A program made the position numbers and the translations under genes. Below, piece by piece: positions 175-61,802 of a stretch of DNA of 64,000 nucleotides (positions are counted from its first letter, which is position 1; every line of letters begins with the position of its first letter). This stretch comes from Klebsiella phage vB_KpnM_KB57. The DNA is taken from the sequence record NC_028659.1. One strand, written 5' to 3'. A model generated the notes under the pieces. That model had not been told where the DNA came from, did not search any database, and saw nothing but the letters and a program-made list of their open reading frames with translations.

Positions 175-183
175 TTAAACTGA

Positions 184-258
184 TGCGCCCTCCCGGACTC
201 GAACCGGGAACCCTGGGGGCTTAACACCCATGCCTCTGCCAGATTGGACCAAGGACGC
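184..258 (-). tRNA. tRNA gene (anticodon unresolved). T-arm CCCGG-TTCGAGT-CCGGG. CCA not encoded.
   Basis: Acceptor pairing GCGTCCT/AGGGCGC with one GU pair, canonical T-loop, ORF-free region. Confidence 0.5.
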
Positions 259-423
259 AAAGCATTTATGTGCTGCGACTCTCTCAAAACACTTGTCGGG
301 AGAAGGTCAAGAAATATCCGCGAAATACCCCTATCGTCACACCCTATGCAATGTCTGTCGTTTCGGTTTGCAACCCTTGCGACTTCTATTCCAAATGGAG
401 AAAGCCCAGCCATAAATGTTTTG

Positions 424-533
424 TGGAGCAGGGTGGTGGAATCTAACCACCTATGTATTCTCCACCGCACGTATGTAGCGGGGATATTTTCAGGTCTGGA
501 TGGACCTCGCGGTTGACAAACCGCCTACCCTGC
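424..533 (-). ncRNA. tRNA-like element. Encoded CCA and T-arm GGTGG-TTAGATT-CCACC at the 3' end, but the distance to the best 5' acceptor partner is ~110 nt. A tRNA with an insertion, or another structured RNA.
   Basis: Acceptor ACCCTGC-T-CCA at 424-433. Complementary GCAGGGT at 527-533. Internal hairpin AGGTC-CATCCA-GACCT with a 6-nt loop. No ORF. Confidence 0.3.
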
Positions 534-535
534 AT

Positions 536-610
536 TGGCTTCTCGAACAGGAATCGAACCTGTACCGTCCCTATCGTGGGACCGCTCTAACCAAAGTAAG
601 CTATCGAGAA
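536..610 (-). tRNA. tRNA gene. Anticodon loop ACGATAG, candidate GAU (Ile), with an atypical C at position 33.
   Basis: Acceptor TTCTCGA/TCGAGAA, D-arm GCTT..GAGC, anticodon stem GTCCC/GGGAC, T-arm ACAGG-TTCGATT-CCTGT, encoded CCA. Confidence 0.55.
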
Positions 611-616
611 ATTGTT

Positions 617-692
617 TGGTGCTCGCAGTAGGACTTGAACCCACGACCTTCTCCTTACAAGGGAGTTGCTCTACCAACTGAGCTATACGAGC
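617..692 (-). tRNA. tRNA-Thr (anticodon UGU)
   Basis: Clean cloverleaf: acceptor GCTCGTA/TGCGAGC, D-arm GCTC-AGTTGGTA-GAGC, anticodon loop CTTGTAA, T-arm GTGGG-TTCAAGT-CCTAC, disc A, CCA encoded. Confidence 0.7.
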
Positions 693-1093
693 AAGAAATG
701 CTGTTTCCGATTAACAGCCTGGAGGAGTCAGTTAGCCATATCTTGTGAGCTAAGATCCTATATCCAGGATTTAAGTAATCAAAGAAATTTTAGCTTTATG
801 GTTTAGAAGTTTCAAGTTTAAACATTAAGCTTTGAACGATAATCTTTGAATGTTGAATGTTGAAGTCTTTCGAATTCGCGATTCGACAATTTCGATCAAA
901 CCGCATCATTGTGCGGACTGACGGAAACATACGTTTAAGTATCATCCTGTACGATTATGTTCGGAGCAGTTTAACCTCCGGCCCCGGTAGAGGCAAGATG
1001 TTTCTGACTTCGCTAACCAAAAACAGCATTTAAAAACTTTACCAGCTATCCGCAGGAATTACAAGATGTTAATCAAGAATTCCTGCAAATATT

Positions 1094-1741
1094 TTAGATT
1101 GATCCTTCAATCTCTACTTCAGTCCGTGCATTTGACTCGGAAAGAACAAAGTCAACGTTAGACTTAAAGTCTTCAATCTCTGCTTCCAGAGAACGAATGC
1201 GATCTGCCAGACCCAGTGGGTCAACAATGGAAGGAGTTCCCATGCTACGAACTGGCGCTTCTACTACAGCCAACTGTGCAGCGTCTGGCGCTTTATCACG
1301 TTGGACATATGGAGCACGAGCAGCTTCAAGCTTCGCCTCGAATTCCTGTGTATCACGGTTCAGGCGAACCTGAGCATGATTATACTGAGACTTCAGTTTG
1401 CCAAGCAGAAGCTCTTTGAAAACGATGGTGCGTTTACGTTCAATCGCCTGAGCTACGGTCATAGACTCGCCAGCGATCTCAACTTTTGTTACAGCGTTTG
1501 ACTGAACAACTTTCGCCTTCAGGTCGTCGCGAACAGCCAGAAGATCCTGAACACCCTGGAAGTCTGCCTGAGCAGATTTCTCGAAGTCCTCAACGCTCTG
1601 GATAGAGCCTGGGATCTGACGGTTTGCGTCAGTGCCTTTCGCGATGTGAATCGTGTTCAGCGCTTCGATACGCTTCTGAATCTTTTCCTCAACCTTGGTC
1701 AGGGTAGCCAGAGCGCGGGTTACAGACATCTTAGTAGACAT
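1094..1741 (-). CDS. Hypothetical coiled-coil protein (215 aa)
   Basis: Long ORF with strong RBS GAGGAG upstream of the ATG. Charged heptad-like sequence. No recognisable catalytic motif. Confidence 0.6.
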   Translation of the reverse strand: MSTKMSVTRALATLTKVEEKIQKRIEALNTIHIAKGTDANRQIPGSIQSVEDFEKSAQADFQGVQDLLAVRDDLKAKVVQSNAVTKVEIAGESMTVAQAIERKRTIVFKELLLGKLKSQYNHAQVRLNRDTQEFEAKLEAARAPYVQRDKAPDAAQLAVVEAPVRSMGTPSIVDPLGLADRIRSLEAEIEDFKSNVDFVLSESNARTEVEIEGSI

Positions 1742-1815
1742 AGAATTCTCCTCTCATGAAATTTAAAATTTGAGTTACTTCAAATATTTGCCGACATCCG
1801 TGTCGGCACTACGCA

Positions 1816-2427
1816 TTAGTTTTTGCCAGTGTTGACAACAACGCCCTGGCGGTTAGCATCAGCTTTTGCGATTTCCAGACGGGTTTCGCGTTCAGCCTTC
1901 AGATCACCACGCGCTGCTTCAAGCTGTTCTGTCAGCATTGCAATACGGTCATCCTTAGCCTTGCTATTCGCAGTAAGTTCTGCAATTGCAACCTTGTGAG
2001 CAGATTCCAGATTTGCCTTAACCGCATTCAGTTCGATTGCAGCGCTACGTTTAACGTCGGCAACTGCGCTTTCTACAGCTTCAGCATTGTTCTGCTGAGA
2101 GATCGCCAGCTCTGCACGAAGGTCTTCAACAACACCCGGTTCTACAGCTACAAGGCCGCGAGCTTTCAGGATAGAATTCAGAACGGAATCTTCGTTTTCC
2201 AGAACTTTGATCTTCAGCTTGGATTTTTCTTCTGCCAGTTTTTCGTTGAACTGAACTTCAATTTGTCCCAGTTCCTGCTGCTTAAACTGAATTTCCTGAC
2301 TGATCTTTTCAGACCCTTCTGCCAGAGATTGCAGTTCAGCGACTACTTTAGTCAGACCAGTAGCGGCAGTGGTTACTGCTTTAGTGGCACGTTCAGTTAC
2401 GGAAATTACAGTTTTAGAATCAGTCAT
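1816..2427 (-). CDS. Hypothetical coiled-coil protein (203 aa)
   Basis: ORF with RBS AAGGAG. Minus-strand promoter TTGACA-N17-TAGTAT immediately upstream. Confidence 0.6.
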   Translation of the reverse strand: MTDSKTVISVTERATKAVTTAATGLTKVVAELQSLAEGSEKISQEIQFKQQELGQIEVQFNEKLAEEKSKLKIKVLENEDSVLNSILKARGLVAVEPGVVEDLRAELAISQQNNAEAVESAVADVKRSAAIELNAVKANLESAHKVAIAELTANSKAKDDRIAMLTEQLEAARGDLKAERETRLEIAKADANRQGVVVNTGKN

Positions 2428-2458
2428 TAAGTTCTCCTTTGCGTTAAATTAGGTTTAA

Positions 2459-2487
2459 ATACTACACTTACAGATTGTGTTTGTCAA
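2459..2487 (-). promoter_or_regulatory. sigma70-like promoter (TTGACA-N17-TAGTAT) for the 1816-2427 gene
   Basis: Reverse complement reads cTTGACAaacacaatctgtaagtgTAGTAT. RBS and ATG follow ~25 nt downstream. Confidence 0.5.
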
Positions 2488-2605
2488 GCGAATCTTTGAT
2501 TATTTCTTCGGTGGTAGGGTTGTTTTCAAACCATGACCAATAATACCAAAGAACAAGCAGGAAAGAGATCACTGACATGATGATAAAGATAACACCGCCA
2601 CTCAT
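2468..2605 (-). CDS. Possible small membrane protein (45 aa, MSGGVIFIIMSVISFLLVLWYYW...)
   Basis: Short ORF with ATGA start/stop overlap to the 2602-2838 ORF and a hydrophobic helix. Overlaps the promoter above, so uncertain. Confidence 0.3.
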   Translation of the reverse strand: MSGGVIFIIMSVISFLLVLWYYWSWFENNPTTEEIIKDSLDKHNL

Positions 2606-2838
2606 CGTACAACGTCCTTAATGGAGTCACAAACTTCACCAACGACGCCTGCGGTAGGTGATACGATAATCTCATCAGCGGCGTCAAGAACTTCTGCGGC
2701 TACATCTACAAAAGGTTCTGCAACAGTTGCCGTGACAACAACAGCAGTACCAACAATATCGCCAGCCATACGTAACAGGGATCCGAACATTTCGTTCTCC
2801 TTTTGGTTTAGATTTGAAACGAGAGCACTTTCGTCCAT
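2602..2838 (-). CDS. Hypothetical small Gly/Val/Ala-rich protein (78 aa)
   Basis: ORF in the tRNA interval. Composition suggests membrane or structural character. Confidence 0.45.
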   Translation of the reverse strand: MDESALVSNLNQKENEMFGSLLRMAGDIVGTAVVVTATVAEPFVDVAAEVLDAADEIIVSPTAGVVGEVCDSIKDVVR

Positions 2839-2918
2839 TTAAGCTATCGCCCTGTGCCACTACGCGAGCCGGGCCAGCAAGAACGGGAGTCGAACCCGTA
2901 TCTCTCTCATTTCAAACT

Positions 2919-2994
2919 TGGTGGGGCATGAAGGATTCGAACCTTCGACCTTCGGCTTAAGGGGCCGCTACACTAACCGCTGTGTTAATACCCC
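2919..2994 (-). tRNA. tRNA gene. Anticodon loop CCCTTAA (candidate CUU Lys, but position 33 is C). CCA encoded.
   Basis: Acceptor GGGGTAT/ATGCCCC, D-arm ACAC-AGCGGTTA-GTGT, T-arm GAAGG-TTCGAAT-CCTTC. Confidence 0.55.
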
Positions 2995-3055
2995 GAAAAC
3001 ATGCCCGTGTTTTTAAAGACGTTTCACGGAATCGTCATTCCCCATGCCGGAGAAA

Positions 3056-3367
3056 TTACTTTTTCTTCTTACTCTTCGTGGCTACGGTTTCAACAACCTT
3101 AGTTTCCTTTACCTTACCAGCACGTTCACGCTTGGTCTTGCCTGTGCGGATGCGGTAAGAAGCAGAGATAATCTGACCACCTTCAATCCGGGTTTCGGAT
3201 TTATACTCTCCTTTACGGCGATCGAAAACTGATACGGTTTTCTCTACACCACCGAGACGCACATCGTGCGGCGCAGAATGAGTCTGAGTAGACTTCGACT
3301 CAAACTGGAAAGGCTGTTTGATAGCGTCGATGGCGGATACTTTCTTAGCAGTATTTTTCTTAGTCAT
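3056..3367 (-). CDS. Lysine-rich basic protein (103 aa). Possible nucleic-acid-binding or abundant virion/internal protein.
   Basis: ORF with RBS AAGGAG and its own TTGACG-N17-TAGTAT promoter. Very basic C-terminus (KSKKKK). Confidence 0.6.
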   Translation of the reverse strand: MTKKNTAKKVSAIDAIKQPFQFESKSTQTHSAPHDVRLGGVEKTVSVFDRRKGEYKSETRIEGGQIISASYRIRTGKTKRERAGKVKETKVVETVATKSKKKK

Positions 3368-3420
3368 AATTTTCTCCTTTGCATTTTATTTGGGAATTTG
3401 TCCCGTTTATGTTCATGAGG

Positions 3421-3449
3421 ATACTAACTCAATCAGATATCCTCGTCAA
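3421..3449 (-). promoter_or_regulatory. sigma70-like promoter (TTGACG-N17-TAGTAT) for the 3056-3367 gene
   Basis: Reverse complement reads TTGACGaggatatctgattgagtTAGTAT. Confidence 0.5.
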
Positions 3450-3459
3450 CATTTTTAAT

Positions 3460-3537
3460 TGGTGGCCCCCGGAGGATTCGAACCTGCCTACCTCTCGATT
3501 ATGAGTCGATTGCTCATACCTAATGAGCTTGAGGGCT
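3460..3537 (-). tRNA. tRNA with anticodon CAU (Met or lysidine-Ile). CCA encoded.
   Basis: D-arm GCTC-ATTAGGTAT-GAGC, anticodon stem TCGA/TCGA with loop CTCATAA, T-loop TTCGAAT, acceptor GGGGGCC-A-CCA. Confidence 0.55.
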
Positions 3538-3539
3538 TA

Positions 3540-3612
3540 TCGTTCAGAGTGGAATTGAACCACTGACCTTGTCCGTATGAAGAACCTGCTCTACCAACTG
3601 AGCTACTGAACG
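3540..3612 (-). tRNA. tRNA, candidate anticodon CAU (loop TTCATAC). CCA not encoded.
   Basis: Acceptor CGTTCAG/CTGAACG, perfect D-arm GCTC-AGTTGGTA-GAGC, T-arm AGTGG-TTCAATT-CCACT. Confidence 0.5.
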
Positions 3613-3992: not shown

Positions 3993-4119
3993 CTACGTCT
4001 TCAGACTGACGAATCCCTTCGCCGTAACCAATAAAGCCGTCAAATTCATCTTTCATCGTTTTGCTCCTTTTCGTTTTGAACGAATGATCGCCGCTTCAGC
4101 ACGACGTTGTTTTCGATTC

Positions 4120-6735: not shown

Positions 6736-7536
6736 TTAAAAGTTTTCGGTCCAGTCGTGGTACGCGTAGATTTCATCAACGCCGCCTTCGTAGATAACTT
6801 CTTTACCGAAGGAAAAGATACCGTGAGTTACGTAAAGAATAACACGTTTTGCTCCTTTTGCCTTCAATGCTTGTGCCAGGGCGATGAATGTGCGACCACC
6901 ATCGCAGATATCATCGACAATAACACACTCGCGGCCTTCAACATCACCGAAAACAGCAGTCCCGGTAATTTCATTTGTCTTCAGATCGCGCACTTTTCCA
7001 GCTTCCACCAGAGGGAGGCGGAGACGATCGGAAACTTTCTGAGCTTTTTTACGTGCTCCGGCGTCAGGTGCCACGATAACAACATCTTTTCCAACCAGGC
7101 CTTCATGGAATTCCGCAATAAGAGCATCCTGACCACGAATTTTAACGTTGTTAAGCAACGCAGCAGAGACATCGCTGTGCGGATCATCGACAATGACCTT
7201 GTCAAACCCAAGAGAGTTGACGATATTTGCGAAAACTTTGATGGATAACGCTTCACCAGGTTGCATTACGCGGTCCTGACGTGCATATGGGATGTACGGC
7301 AAGTGCAAAGTGAACTGTGCAGTATGATGGAGGCCTTCAAGGCGAGAACATGCATCAACCAACATGGCAAGTGCCATAACATCAGTAGAATTTTTAATTT
7401 TCGCAGTGATGTCTACGAAACCAATACCACCTTTCGGGGTATGCGCCATATCGATTCTAACCTGTTCTTCACCACCTTTGAACGTAAAGTGATCGACAGG
7501 AACTACCAGTTTGTTCAGACGAAGTTCTAAACTCAT
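6736..7536 (-). CDS. prs: Ribose-phosphate pyrophosphokinase (PRPP synthetase)
   Basis: 266 aa with the PRPP-binding signature VIVDDICDGGRTF. Sits immediately upstream of NAMPT in the same orientation. Confidence 0.8.
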   Translation of the reverse strand: MSLELRLNKLVVPVDHFTFKGGEEQVRIDMAHTPKGGIGFVDITAKIKNSTDVMALAMLVDACSRLEGLHHTAQFTLHLPYIPYARQDRVMQPGEALSIKVFANIVNSLGFDKVIVDDPHSDVSAALLNNVKIRGQDALIAEFHEGLVGKDVVIVAPDAGARKKAQKVSDRLRLPLVEAGKVRDLKTNEITGTAVFGDVEGRECVIVDDICDGGRTFIALAQALKAKGAKRVILYVTHGIFSFGKEVIYEGGVDEIYAYHDWTENF

Positions 7537-49946: not shown

Positions 49947-50375
49947 ATGATAAAACATTGCCATAATTGCAGTGCCTGTTGTGAAGTTATCGCTATAGAT
50001 AACATCACGCACGAAGAATTTCACGAAAAGGTCAGGACCGGAAGAGTATCGGCTATCCACGGGGAGATGATGAAACCAATCTCCAGGGACGAGGCCTACA
50101 AACGGAATCCTCTTGTTGTTACAGGTCGTGAAGAGGTTGGTAAAGGAACAAAACACTTCACCAGCTACTTTACCTGCACAAAGCTGAAAGACAACAAGTG
50201 CTCAATATACGAGGATCGCCCGTACATGTGCAGCGGATATCCGTTCTATGACCGAGGGCCTGTGGACACACAATCACATGCTTCTCTGTGCAAGACACAG
50301 CTTCGCAGGAAGGACACCCCGTACTCCTCAACATGTACGTATGTCCCAAACCTGATCGCAGTCAAGAATATCTGA
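49947..50375 (+). CDS. YkgJ-like CxxCxxCC (putative Fe-S / zinc-chelating domain) protein
   Basis: CHNCSACCEV ... CSIYEDRPYMCSGYPF fits the UPF0153 CxxCxxCC...C..RP..C..YP pattern. Confidence 0.4.
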   Translation: MIKHCHNCSACCEVIAIDNITHEEFHEKVRTGRVSAIHGEMMKPISRDEAYKRNPLVVTGREEVGKGTKHFTSYFTCTKLKDNKCSIYEDRPYMCSGYPFYDRGPVDTQSHASLCKTQLRRKDTPYSSTCTYVPNLIAVKNI

Positions 50376-50439
50376 CCCACACAACAAGGGGCCTGAAGAG
50401 GCTCCTTTTCTTTTATCTAAAGTGGCACATCAATTTCTC

Positions 50440-50468
50440 TTGACCTGAAGTGTACAGTCGATTATACT
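50440..50468 (+). promoter_or_regulatory. Strong sigma70-like promoter TTGACC-N17-TATACT
   Basis: Followed by RBS GAGGAG and a 39-aa ORF. Confidence 0.55.
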
Positions 50469-50497
50469 CCTCTCATACAAAACACGAGGAGAATTCT

Positions 50498-50617
50498 ATG
50501 GACGACACGGGTTTCTTATTACTGGGGATGCTGATTACAGCGTTCCTGATCCTTATCCCTTACGGGATGATGTTGTACGTATCTATTGGGCCAGTGGCTA
50601 AGAAGGACGATTGTTGA
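50498..50617 (+). CDS. Small hydrophobic peptide (39 aa, MDDTGFLLLGMLITAFLILIPYGMMLYVSIG...)
   Basis: Good promoter and RBS. Single TM helix. Confidence 0.35.
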   Translation: MDDTGFLLLGMLITAFLILIPYGMMLYVSIGPVAKKDDC

Positions 50618-50645
50618 GACTGCTATGCGGCTGACCACACAAAAG

Positions 50646-50674
50646 GGTTGACGTAAACTGTCAGCCCTGTTATG
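50646..50674 (+). promoter_or_regulatory. Orphan sigma70-like promoter TTGACG-N17-TATGCT with no ORF downstream
   Basis: Consensus-like hexamers. Next >1.7 kb is non-coding. Confidence 0.45.
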
Positions 50675-50902
50675 CTTTATGTAAGCCACATCTCCTGAAG
50701 CTGGAGGATACAATCACCACTCCTGCGTGAAAGGTTGTACATCCTGTTAACACACAATCTGAAGTGACTTACCGATATGTCGATAAAGCACCCTTTCATA
50801 AACACATTGCCGTAACGTGTCGATGCCATAAGCATGTCTGAAGTGGCCTCCGTTTTCTCCACATAACCACCCCCGCCCCCGTGGGGAAATCAAAACATGC
50901 CC

Positions 50903-50932
50903 CTGCCGAAAATATCACTTGCCGAAAATATC
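50903..50932. repeat. Tandem direct repeat CTGCCGAAAATATC x2 (third partial copy CTTGCCGAAAC at 51081-51091)
   Basis: Seen directly in the sequence. Confidence 0.6.
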
Positions 50933-51796
50933 TGTCTGGGTGTTTTGGAGCATTCGTACTGTCTGAGGTGCTAGACGGACAGCTCCGGGCGTCAACTATC
51001 TTTACGGATCTTTACAAAATATCATGGGCAAGGTCGATCCGGTCCCCGGTTCCTCGGGGCCTCTTCAGGAATGAAAGTTACTTGCCGAAACTAATAATAA
51101 TCAAATGTGACAGATAGCAAGCATATGGTTTGCCAGCTTAGAGCACGATTTGCTATTGACTTGTTTATATTTGTGTGAATTACGCCATTTAACATAAAAC
51201 ACGTTATACGCACTAGCTAACAACACATAGCAAGCTAATAATGCCCCAGTGTTACCAGTGTGACGCATAGGCCAGTCGCTTCAGGTCATTACATGGTGTG
51301 ACTGTTACTGTGGTGATAGTTTCATGTGTGATTATTCATGTTTTAGGGTTGTTTTGTGAATGAGACGACGAATGAGAATCATTACTATTTCGATTTCGAA
51401 TTCAATTTCGAAATGAGAATCATTCCGCAAATATAAATATTTTGTAAATTTATAAATAAAAGCTTGACAAGAGAAGAGAATCGTGTTTAGCAATACATAC
51501 TCTTTGAGCATCATTATCATTTGCGACTAATTCCCATCAACCCCGTTACGGACCGGATACCCGGCAATGCTAAAGCATTGAAATAGTTACAATAAGTAAC
51601 TATTTTCTTTATTGCTACGCAAGGGATTGATAGATATTTTCGATAATAAAAACACTTGACAGTTTACACTTCTTCCATGCTCAAAATCAGGCCTTTCCAT
51701 AGGCCATAGGCCCACATTAGCAAGTGATTTATTGCTATTTGTCAATCATTAAATTTCATTTAATCACATAATAATAACGGGTTGTTACCATCACCA

Positions 51797-52000
51797 GCGA
51801 CACAATAACACGGGAGCGATCACGCAGGGCGTGATCGGTGTTATCGTGGCGATGTGATAAAATAAGTTTGCTAATCATTACGGATGTAATGATCTTAATG
51901 ATAACAATTTTCATTCGCTCTTAGGCGTCTACGAGCCACGATAACGCGAACGAAAATGATAAGTATTATCATTTGAGTTACTCCCGTGTTATTGTGTCGC
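51797..52000. repeat. Perfect 20-bp inverted repeat (GCGACACAATAACACGGGAG / CTCCCGTGTTATTGTGTCGC) flanking 164 bp that contains two perfect hairpins (CGATCACGCaggGCGTGATCG, ATCATTACggaGTAATGAT)
   Basis: Seen directly. Flanked by direct repeats CACGAT(A/T)ACGCGAACGA (51937, 52023) and TGATAA(A/G)(A)GT(A)TTATCATTTGAG (51957, 52101). Confidence 0.65.
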
Positions 52001-52373
52001 TCGCTACGCTCGCGCCACTCCCCACGATTACGCGAACGATTTTTATTTGACAAGATTTTATTTTTATGCTCAATAAAACCAGTTCACACAATAGGTTAGA
52101 TGATAAAAGTTATCATTTGAGAGTGATTCTCACAGTATGCATACATAATGCTTAAAAATGCATGTTTTATTCAGTTAATAACATGCGTTATTAATTGTTG
52201 GGGTTGTTAGGTAGGGCCATACCCTTTTAAGCGCAATATGCGCCATTCTGAGAGGCTTTATCTCTTACCCTGGCTAGTGGGTTACCGCCTGGAGATCTCG
52301 ATTATGCAGGTTTTAGTCACCTATCACTTTTTGATTATTGATTGATAAAACCTAAAGTATAAAAACACAAAAG

Positions 52374-52400
52374 CCGGGAGTTACCCGGCATTATTTTTGG
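52374..52400. terminator. Bidirectional terminator hairpin GCCGGGAGTTACCCGGC with flanking T/A runs
   Basis: Sits at the boundary between the non-coding region and the minus-strand small-gene block. Confidence 0.5.
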
Positions 52401-52414
52401 GGAGTGGTGGAACC

Positions 52415-52678
52415 TTACAGCGCGATTGCCAGCAGGCCAGCGACCACGAAAGGGAGATCATAACGATCTAAACGCTTAAAGCGATTAAGTTTAATCAGGG
52501 TGTAAAACGTTAATTGTAAAACATCGATCATGGTGTTAAACCCTTGCGCCGTTGTTTCCGTCGTTACCAGGCCGACAAGGCAGTTAAAACACGTATTAGA
52601 CACTAAAGCAATAAGGCAAGCCAGCAGGGTAGCGCGTAAAATGCTTGTTTTGCTTACAGTGTAAATCATGTTTGTCAT
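52415..52678 (-). CDS. Small membrane protein (87 aa, 2-3 TM)
   Basis: Hydrophobic segments. Last gene of the leftward block. Confidence 0.5.
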   Translation of the reverse strand: MTNMIYTVSKTSILRATLLACLIALVSNTCFNCLVGLVTTETTAQGFNTMIDVLQLTFYTLIKLNRFKRLDRYDLPFVVAGLLAIAL

Positions 52679-52831
52679 TTGGTGTTACTCGTTTAATGAA
52701 GGAGATAGAAGAATAACAGACGAAAAAGGGCGCTGCAATAGCGCCCCGATGTTATTTTGCTAATTAAGCTAATTCAATCTCAAATAAAACGCCCATATAG
52801 CGATCATCACCTGAAAGCGTAGTAACAATTT

Positions 52832-53044
52832 TCATACATTCTTCAAAGGTCCAAGCCATTGTAGACCCCTGGCGAACATAAGACACATAACCGGTTTTTG
52901 AAGTGCTTTTGATATTGTAGCGGATATTTGACATTTATTTACCTTCGGTTTTGCGGGTTGGTTATCTTCCCGCTCTGAAATAAATAATAGTCGAAAACAT
53001 CTGGCGAGGCAAGCGTTTTGCCTTTTCTTTACAACCTCATTCAC
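52832..53044 (-). CDS. Hypothetical protein (70 aa)
   Basis: ORF in the cassette array. Confidence 0.45.
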   Translation of the reverse strand: MNEVVKKRQNACLARCFRLLFISEREDNQPAKPKVNKCQISATISKALQKPVMCLMFARGLQWLGPLKNV

Positions 53045-61405: not shown

Positions 61406-61802
61406 AAAATATTTTATCGCGGGGCTTGCAAACGGCCCCGGCCTGGATTATATTTATCAGACAGAAGAGGAAACGCCACCCCACGGCGAAAAGGCGGGGC
61501 TAACATACCAGGCGCGGAGACCTGGTTGGAAGGTGGATCGCTGGTAGCTCGCCTTGAATAGTTTTGTAAAGAATTGTAAAGACGCTTGCAACCTGGGGCC
61601 GTGTATCCTATATTATACACATAGCGGGAACATTGAAACCGGAGTACAAAACACCGGGGGTACCTGTCATTCAGCAAATGAGAATGATTATCATTCAAAT
61701 AACTAAATAAGAATGCTTATCATTCAACAAAAAATTTAAATATTGACTTCTGATTTTTCATGTGAGATACTGAACGATACCCATAAAAAATTTTTTCGCG
61801 TA

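Follow-up and report, generated by a model that had tools for sequence, protein, structure and literature searches.

What occupies the 1.8 kb that separate two gene blocks of Klebsiella phage vB_KpnM_KB57? The gap was analysed within a window of 64,000 nucleotides (64 kb; sequence record NC_028659.1, positions being those of the window), in which it lies at 50620-52410. It separates two convergent gene blocks: + strand genes to the left, the last small open reading frame (ORF) of which ends at 50617, and - strand genes to the right, starting with a gene at 52415-52678. A prediction made from the sequence alone (hereafter the original prediction) had described the gap as non-coding and repeat-dense, a candidate origin or other cis-acting site, and every feature that it listed is present in the sequence. 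We propose that the gap is the genome-end (concatemer-junction) region of a Mydovirus myophage, and that a cloverleaf-like fold at 51796-52001 is a + strand non-coding RNA near the genome ends; taken as a whole, we consider this reading moderately probable.

The phages most closely related in this region are ~145-kb myophages of the genus Mydovirus (Vequintavirinae). A megablast search with 50400-52500 returned 58 phage records, with KpS8 at the top (97%) followed by KPP-1, NDO71, VLCpiM5a and Proteus phage Mydo, and a blastn search with the non-coding DNA returned 64 records, Seunavirus and Henunavirus among them. The absence of a credible ORF over ~1.8 kb, as originally claimed, was borne out: ORFs in 50620-52410 reach at most 35-78 aa, and none of the 13 small ORFs of this size tested in 16 relatives is conserved or stays open with third-codon-position bias. 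Even the best, 40 aa long with a GTG start, is intact in 11/16 relatives and has substitutions distributed over the three codon positions as 128/99/110. Consistent with this, the curators of the PVP-SE1 record placed no coding sequence (CDS) in the homologous 2.2 kb, and the rV5 paper draws an unexplained 'non-coding' box at the same position. A scan for tRNA and tmRNA genes found none within the gap, and a cmscan search of 50000-53000 against Rfam (E<=1) gave only two chance-level matches, both in parts of the gap outside the folded element.

The termini of close relatives fall inside the gap. The KPP-1 paper reports ~two-fold read coverage at MT438396 116316-116829, a 514-bp direct terminal repeat (DTR) confirmed with PhageTerm, and T7-type packaging; this DTR aligns to 50974-51487 of the window at 96.5% over 514/514 bases with no overhang. 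The record of Klebsiella phage DP carries a 514-bp repeat_region at both ends, the copies being identical, and BLAST places it on the same 50974-51487, while the KP12 record begins at window position 50974 and finishes at 50973. Across these three phages, identity to the window repeat is 92-97%. Erwinia phage Hena1 (Henunavirus) has annotated 519-bp direct terminal repeats, identical at both record ends and in the homologous place, with the same order as in the window (gene, ~950 nt of non-coding DNA, DTR). Two further phages with published DTRs are BME3 (342 bp) and Jab (475 bp).

Sequence motifs at the repeat boundaries agree with these termini (^ marks the cut). The left motif, TGTCTGAGGTGCTA^GACGGACA (50959-50981, + strand), would be cut between 50973 and 50974, which is where the KPP-1 DTR starts, the DP record ends and the KP12 record starts and ends. 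The right motif, TTGACA(51464-51469)-N18-^TAGCAAT (51464-51494, + strand), would be cut between 51487 and 51488 and overlaps a promoter-like site, P2; the cut falls exactly where the spacer meets the -10-like hexamer of P2. At the right site TTGACA and GTGTTTAGCA are invariant and the intervening spacer is variable. The boundary motifs common to the window and Hena1, TCTGAnnTGnTA^GACGGACA and CTTGACA-N13-GTGTT^TAGCA, are both conserved in Mydovirus and Seunavirus. In Hena1 the homologues TCTGATCTGTTA^GACGGACA on the left and CTTGACAGGAAGATAGAAAAGTGTT^TAGCAC on the right stand at the annotated DTR limits; written in window orientation, the boundaries are tctgatctgtta^GACGGACA and CTTGACAGGAAGATAGAAAAGTGTT^tagcac in Hena1, and tctgaggtgcta^GACGGACA and CTTGACAAGAGAAGAGAATCGTGTT^tagcaa in the window.

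Because the KPP-1, DP, KP12 and Hena1 termini and the boundary motifs coincide, we assign 50974-51487 as the DTR, and the two motifs as the predicted terminase cut sites, with high confidence. A DTR is a known kind of feature, published for close relatives, and those of Mydovirus and Henunavirus (KPP-1 and DP 514 bp, Hena1 519 bp) share the boundary motifs and the inter-block position of the window repeat. The relatives carry the repeat at their ends, whereas in the window it occurs once and mid-sequence because the assembly was collapsed and permuted. The original prediction's 'other cis-acting site' is thereby borne out, and the analysis of virion termini that it had called for, as done in close relatives, locates the DTR and both cut sites inside the region. 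At a separate locus, 7419-7456 of the rV5-like phage FV3, inside a 2.27-kb CDS-free gap, the sequence GGACGTCTAGACGGTCAG resembles the left cut-site motif GCTA^GACGGACAG and might mark an rV5-type genome end.

To the right of the DTR lies a structured element of ~205 nt (51796-52001, + strand), recognised by folding and covariation, which forms a cloverleaf-like four-way junction. Its closing stem A is the perfect inverted repeat that the original prediction had given as 20 bp; the repeat is perfect but 21 nt long (51796-51816/51981-52001, with 164 nt between the arms), and by our own calculation ~5e-7 such pairs would be expected by chance in 2.1 kb. Two perfect 8-9-bp hairpins had been noted inside it. 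There are in fact three, namely H1 (51817-51825/51829-51837), H2 (51874-51881/51886-51893) and H3 (51954-51962/51966-51974, with an AAC/GUU extension at 51949-51951/51977-51979), together with a nested 13-bp stem B that carries H2 (51838-51850/51935-51947). Folding of 51794-52003 yields the four-way junction with a minimum free energy (MFE) of -98.4 kcal/mol and a z-score of -12.8. A near-invariant 3' tail, CGCTCGCTACGCTCGCGCCACTCCCCACGATTACGCGAACGA then TTTTTATTT (52002-52046, + strand), forms a terminator-like imperfect hairpin, includes a second CCACGATnACGCGAACGA copy and is 89-95% identical to Seunavirus.

The fold is supported by covariation among 23 phages of three genera (Mydovirus, Seunavirus and Henunavirus), on which RNAalifold yields the same structure with 15 compensatory pairs. 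In a MAFFT alignment, pairing holds in 96.5% of cells and double changes occur at 20 pairs, a result that 0/500 shuffles reach, and controls in which the structure was slid along the alignment are 21-49% paired. The alignment fitted to a covariance model, which leans towards structure by construction, has 99.3% of cells paired and double changes in 19/52 pairs, 12 of these 19 in stem A (0/500 shuffles; slid controls 21-53% paired); the model itself covers a 209-position core. In Henunavirus (pEp_SNUABM_01 and Hena1) the sequence of stem A is entirely different and the pairing still perfect, and the H1 loops are the GNRA tetraloops GAAA and GCAA. H3 likewise occurs as ATGATA/TATCAT, ATGCGA/TCGCAT, ACGATA/TATCGT and ATC(A/G)AAAC/GTTTTGAT, and in Mydo its loop accommodates a 53-nt insertion. 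The unit bounded by the inverted repeat is a real, strongly selected fold kept by compensatory mutations.

The element is 84-96% identical to Seunavirus and the most conserved block of the non-coding DNA, 51920-52120, 78-96%, compared with ~67% for the neighbouring gene and its CDS. Consensus folding of 50680-50975, the DTR, 51488-51800 and 52075-52395 gave only weak structures on either strand (-4 to -38 kcal/mol over 174-525 columns). The GenBank record of SalP219 starts mid-element and two IMG/VR loci terminate inside it; the long inverted repeat may disturb assembly, and the IMG/VR locus ends may merely reflect how the data were cut.

Two direct repeats overlap the element. The CCACGAT(A/T)ACGCGAACGA repeats are real (51936-51953 and 52022-52039), though to call them flanking is inexact, one copy lying inside the unit, and the TGATAA..TTATCATTTGAG repeat is found at 51956-51977 and 52100-52121. 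Two candidate roles for such copies were rejected. A palindromic operator at H3 is unlikely, given that changes in H3 are not matched in its copy at 52100: H3 becomes ATGCGA/TCGCAT in five phages and the 52100 copy stays ATGATAA/TTATCAT, the lack of joint change at 52100-52121 being seen in BIS47, KNP2, KpS11 and Seu621. Pairing of the 5' strand of stem B with the second CCACGATnAC copy always leaves one mismatch, at a varying position, and a structural switch is unsupported.

The original prediction had likened the 200-bp unit to a miniature inverted-repeat transposable element (MITE) or to a resolvase or recombinase site, and a perfect 21-nt inverted repeat around a short non-coding unit would indeed be in keeping with either, or with the target of an invertase. 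The covariance model, however, finds exactly one copy in the 64-kb window, as does BLAST, and one copy per locus in Mydovirus, Seunavirus and Henunavirus; none of the 23 relatives lacks it or has it at a different site. The edges are without a target-site duplication, all 23 interiors are collinear and in the same orientation, no recombinase or transposase ORF lies nearby and no ORF in the gap is conserved. When 596 Gb of bacterial genomes were scanned for exact 17-mers, 39 matches appeared, about the number that we estimate for chance, and none fits the covariance model. The internal hairpins, finally, covary, which a recombination site does not explain. A mobile element is thus unlikely, and the MITE or recombinase-target explanation in particular is improbable in the extreme; what survives of this claim is that the unit is a real, selected structure.

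Nor does the gap look like decayed or spacer DNA between convergent blocks in which repeats arose by chance in AT-rich sequence, an explanation that we regard as highly improbable. Several short repeat families do occur at chance level, and deletion accounts for some of the gap's left part, because extra small ORFs of the relatives are missing from the window at 50621-50845; Mydo, KPP-1 and others have two or three additional small ORFs here, between the last + strand gene and the DTR. Nucleotide conservation across genera nevertheless exceeds that of the flanking genes, the termini map here and the covariation statistics are strong, so that the spacer explanation is contradicted for 50950-52130 and may hold for part of 50680-50860.

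As defined by its covariance model, the element appears confined to Mydovirus, Seunavirus and Henunavirus; searches of FV3, PD06, KP2025 and BME3 gave no significant match (best E 0.04). An analogous fold is nonetheless present in the phi92-like, Justusliebigvirus-type phages BME3, PD06 and KP2025 (Stephanstirmvirinae), where it occupies the same gap and lies to the same side of the DTR; a closing stem of 14-16 bp that includes AATAAC(A/G)C encloses three arms, and a 3' hairpin follows. Eleven of its pairs are compensatory, four G-U pairs are invariant on the equivalent strand, and its energy is -81 to -83 kcal/mol on that strand vs -61 to -69 kcal/mol on the opposite one. The analogue differs in its interior of ~130-147 nt (205 nt in the window element), in its other interior sequences, in the lack of a GTTATCGTGGC/GCCACGATAAC stem and in a model match of only E 0.04; homology of the two folds is plausible. 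The distance from element or analogue to DTR is 308 nt in the window, 261 nt in Hena1 and ~700 nt in BME3, and it is because of this constant neighbourhood that we infer a role at the genome ends.

Does the element act as RNA or as DNA? The evidence for RNA comes from strand asymmetry. In the element alignment read on the + strand, G-T cells outnumber A-C cells by 38 vs 6, 21/23 sequences retain one U-G pair, and eight have G-U in place of one A-U pair. The single-sequence MFE is -98.4 kcal/mol on the + strand and -90.3 kcal/mol on the - strand, and the consensus energies are -72 vs -61. The T-run of TTTTTATTT after the 3' hairpin is kept in Mydovirus and Seunavirus. The G-U pairs, the energy asymmetry and the 3' tail hairpin with its T-run together favour a + strand RNA, an interpretation of these models to which we give slightly better than even weight.

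The fold could instead work as DNA: once displaced in the course of replication or concatemer processing, the + strand would snap back as a hairpin or branched form, which would prime or guide DTR duplication or be recognised by the terminase. Such a role would follow the hairpin-intermediate model proposed for T7: according to a paper citing Chung & Hinkle 1990, T7-infected cells yielded a hairpin DNA that includes the terminal repeat, and models of repeat duplication have made use of it. It would also agree with the constant presence of the element in the same gap as the DTR, with the invariant sequence of stem B and of the CCACGATnACGCGAAC repeats, as expected of DNA-binding sites, and with the lack of a well-formed promoter directly upstream. 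On the other hand, the covariation reaches three short internal hairpins and the four-way junction, beyond what a snap-back primer needs, the GNRA loops of H1 in Henunavirus and the T-run after the 3' hairpin are RNA-like, and loop insertions are tolerated, as in Mydo. We regard a DNA-level role, for instance a T7-like snap-back or a branched intermediate, as possible but a good deal less than even.

Several points weigh against the reading as a genome-end RNA. The G-U evidence is carried by few independent positions and is of moderate strength; single-stranded DNA tolerates G-T too, and strand asymmetry does not prove RNA. The T-run behind the element is absent in Henunavirus, and the nearest upstream TTGACA sites have no good -10 hexamer, the sigma-70 promoter P1 described below being 1.1 kb away. 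The 13-bp stem B never covaries, and its sequence CCACGATnACGCGAAC occurs three times, once inverted, a recurrence that would also fit protein-binding DNA sites. The rV5-like phage FV3 has no homologue by the covariance model. The DTR itself is assigned by 92-97% identity to relatives. The literature, judged by titles and abstracts, yielded no transcriptome study of a phage with this region.

A transcript of the element would need a promoter, and the orphan consensus promoter of the original prediction is present. P1 (TTGACG at 50648-50653, a 17-nt spacer and TATGCT at 50671-50676, with a TG upstream; + strand) was recovered by a promoter scan and is conserved across genera as a sigma-70 promoter, being kept as TTGAC(G/C)-N17-TAnnnT in 13/16 relatives with -10 hexamers that vary between TATGCT, TATTCT, TATAGT and TACTAT. 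The class TTGACA-N17-TAnnnT has 12 sites in the 64-kb window vs 0.72 expected, which suggests that the phage uses host-type promoters, P1 being a TTGACG variant of that class. P1 points rightwards into the DTR, and for this reason would run off the end of incoming linear DNA, read-through being possible only on joined repeats. The stretch just downstream of it has weak consensus structure, and the folded element begins ~1.1 kb further right.

Invariant TTGACA sites at 51464, 51656 and 52047 share the direction of P1 but lack a good -10 hexamer and have spacer insertions in some relatives; these sites, P2, P3 and P4, are treated as promoter-like only. The P3-like site (51656-51686, + strand) combines an invariant TTGACA (51656-51661) with ATGCTCAAAA (51677-51686) and has no good -10 hexamer at 16-18 nt; its TTGACAGTTTAC is retained in Hena1, and promoter function is doubtful because the spacer length differs in EC152 and KE23. 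The P4-like site (52047-52121, + strand) consists of TTGACA(52047-52052)-N17-TCAATA(52070-52075) followed by the H3-like hairpin copy ATGATAAAAGTTATCATTTGAG (52100-52121), and in Mydo a 53-nt insertion separates its two hexamers. An 11-nt perfect inverted pair, GTAAACTGTCA and TGACAGTTTAC, brackets the DTR at 50653-50663 (inside P1) and 51657-51667 (inside the P3-like site); Hena1 retains TGACAGTTTAC too, and by length alone the pair is near chance.

A replication origin, one of the roles named in the original prediction, would have transcription by host RNA polymerase (RNAP) from the TTGACA sites through an AT-rich block, a structured transcript, or both, prime a family-A polymerase and a gp4-like primase-helicase. 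The models for such an origin are the promoter-primed origins of T7, oriF/oriG of T4 and RNA II of ColE1; the R-loops of the T4 origins and RNA II share with the window a promoter-like site, a structured transcript (here a predicted one) and an AT-rich tract, and have no homology to it. The right-hand part of the DTR (51371-51462) contains two AATGAGAATCATT palindromes (51371-51383 and 51412-51424) and then the most AT-rich block of the region, with a GC content of 0.22 at 51410-51469, adjoining both the palindromes and a TTGACA site; it is 99-100% conserved in Mydovirus and 64-82% in Seunavirus. Iteron-like direct repeats are present, the GC skew changes sign and its cumulative curve turns at ~50-51 kb, and the rV5 paper records that phages of this type encode both a family-A polymerase and a gp4-like primase-helicase. 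The skew turn, however, coincides with the switch from + to - strand genes, as the rV5 authors likewise concluded, the direct repeats have only two copies, and the AT-rich block lies inside the DTR and may serve packaging instead. An origin here is compatible with the RNA reading, and we hold it to be possible yet doubtful.

Under the reading that we favour, the gap would work as follows. The terminase would cut replicated concatemers at two sites, ...TGCTA^GACGGACA to the left and ...GTGTT^TAGCA to the right, and the repeat would be duplicated such that each virion DNA bears a DTR at both ends; both the two cuts and the duplication would follow from what is established for DTR phages. The + strand fold would be made as a non-coding RNA with its 3' end at the T-run near 52046. 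Its transcription would start at the TTGACA sites or, only on concatemers or circles, proceed by read-through from P1 across the repeat. This RNA may then act at or near the genome ends, in concatemer processing and packaging or in the priming of replication.

Other short repeats surround these features. Of the tandem CTTGCCGAAAATATC repeats in the original prediction, two good adjacent copies exist (50902-50916, with one mismatch, and 50918-50932) and a degenerate third lies at 51081-51095, and by number the copies do not exceed chance (4 matches, with 2.4 expected). The adjacent pair, C(C/T)TGCCGAAAATATC (50902-50932, + strand), lies 42-72 nt left of the left genome end and is 86-99% conserved in Mydovirus and ~38% in Seunavirus; a binding site for the terminase or an accessory protein is only a guess. 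The GC hairpins that had been noted are present at 50871-50886 (CCCCGCCCCCGTGGGG) and 51044-51059 (CCCCGGTTCCTCGGGG), and so is the recurrence of AATGAGAATCATT, which besides its two copies in the DTR has a related cluster at 61677-61724; motifs of this type have 11 matches in the 64-kb window vs 3.85 expected, a number reached by 0/100 shuffles. The motifs TCTGAAGTG and ATGCTCAAWA occur at chance level across the 64-kb window; 5/18 of its TCTGAAGTG-like words fall within 50416-50970 (555 nt), all on the + strand, the last ending 3 nt before the left genome end; the local clustering alone is unusual.

At 61677-61772, two Fur-box-like palindromes, GAGAATGATTATCATTC and AAGAATGCTTATCATTC, stand just upstream of a TTGACT-N17-GATACT promoter-like site. 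Their TTATCATT core recurs in the gap at 51371, 51412, 51504, 51956 and 52100, and near the BME3 DTR as GATAATGATTATCATTTGC; a regulator of the phage or the host (Fur-like) might use it as a common operator. Three hairpins with a T-run at the end make up a 68-nt cassette, which (51544-51611, + strand) has a single copy in the window and is present or absent among relatives irrespective of genus; where present it is almost invariant, although several phages have its last hairpin loop in inverted form (AATAA vs TTATT/CTATT). Mydo has two ~53-nt insertions with three short hairpins each, one in the H3 loop (~4005-4057 of the Mydo locus) and the other between the P4 hexamers, which look like a small family of hairpin-cassette insertions. 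A bidirectional intrinsic terminator, GCCGGGAGTTACCCGGC (52373-52389, both strands), annotated as such in Mydo and PVP-SE1 too, closes the region against the - strand block. Elsewhere in the window, the - strand has a cluster of six tRNA genes at 182-3612: Leu, Thr, Lys, two Met and a sixth whose anticodon loop is irregular.

How does this locus compare with known systems? In T7, for which the positions of phiOL and phiOR are reportedly those given by Dunn and Studier in 1983, the concatemer junction (phiOR, terminal repeat, phiOL) resembles the window in having a short DTR between co-directional promoters and an inverted repeat in the adjoining unique DNA. It differs in that its promoters are for phage RNAP, whereas those here are of host sigma-70 type, in a repeat of 160 bp rather than 514 bp, in having no known counterpart of the covarying multi-hairpin fold, and in showing no sequence similarity; the resemblance would be one of analogy, not membership. 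The pRNA of phi29 is a structured phage RNA of ~120-174 nt with its gene within a few hundred bases of the genome end and a fold conserved via covariation. Structure, a covarying fold and a place near the genome end are shared with the element, but phi29 packages protein-primed DNA without a DTR and window positions 50000-53000 have no Rfam match of any kind, so that the parallel may serve as a lead, not a classification. Closer in position are the 'non-coding' box of rV5 and the CDS-free gaps of FV3 and PVP-SE1, which lie in the same place between convergent units, at the GC-skew turn, with ~2.2 kb without ORFs; the rV5 paper assigns neither function nor termini to its box, and the covariance model of the window element matches nothing in the FV3 gap.

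We found no description of the folded element in Rfam or, judged by titles and abstracts, in the literature; the element appears new, and a function at the genome ends is what we infer for it. For phage therapy, the myophages of 140-150 kb that carry such gaps (Mydovirus, Seunavirus, rV5- and phi92-like) have been isolated widely; their ~2-kb gene-free box has stood unexplained since the rV5 paper of 2013. Exact virion ends and cut motifs provide a guide for annotators orienting these genomes and help to explain assemblies that are permuted or broken here. The covarying fold also offers a mutable target for studying concatemer processing or the start of replication in DTR phages with host-type promoters. 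Should the fold prove to be an RNA, a new family of structured RNAs would have come from phages that are in culture and open to genetics. More speculatively, and in our estimation rather improbably, the fold could be the first known example of a class of phage RNA, as yet undescribed, that lies just inside the DTR of rV5/PVP-SE1/phi92-type myophages and serves as a genome-end cofactor; in one version of this idea the full RNA would be made only when P1 reads across the concatemer-joined repeat, and would then license terminase cutting and repeat duplication or prime replication. Were this true, a terminase/DTR pathway of packaging or end replication would for the first time have an RNA component, loosely like the pRNA of phi29.

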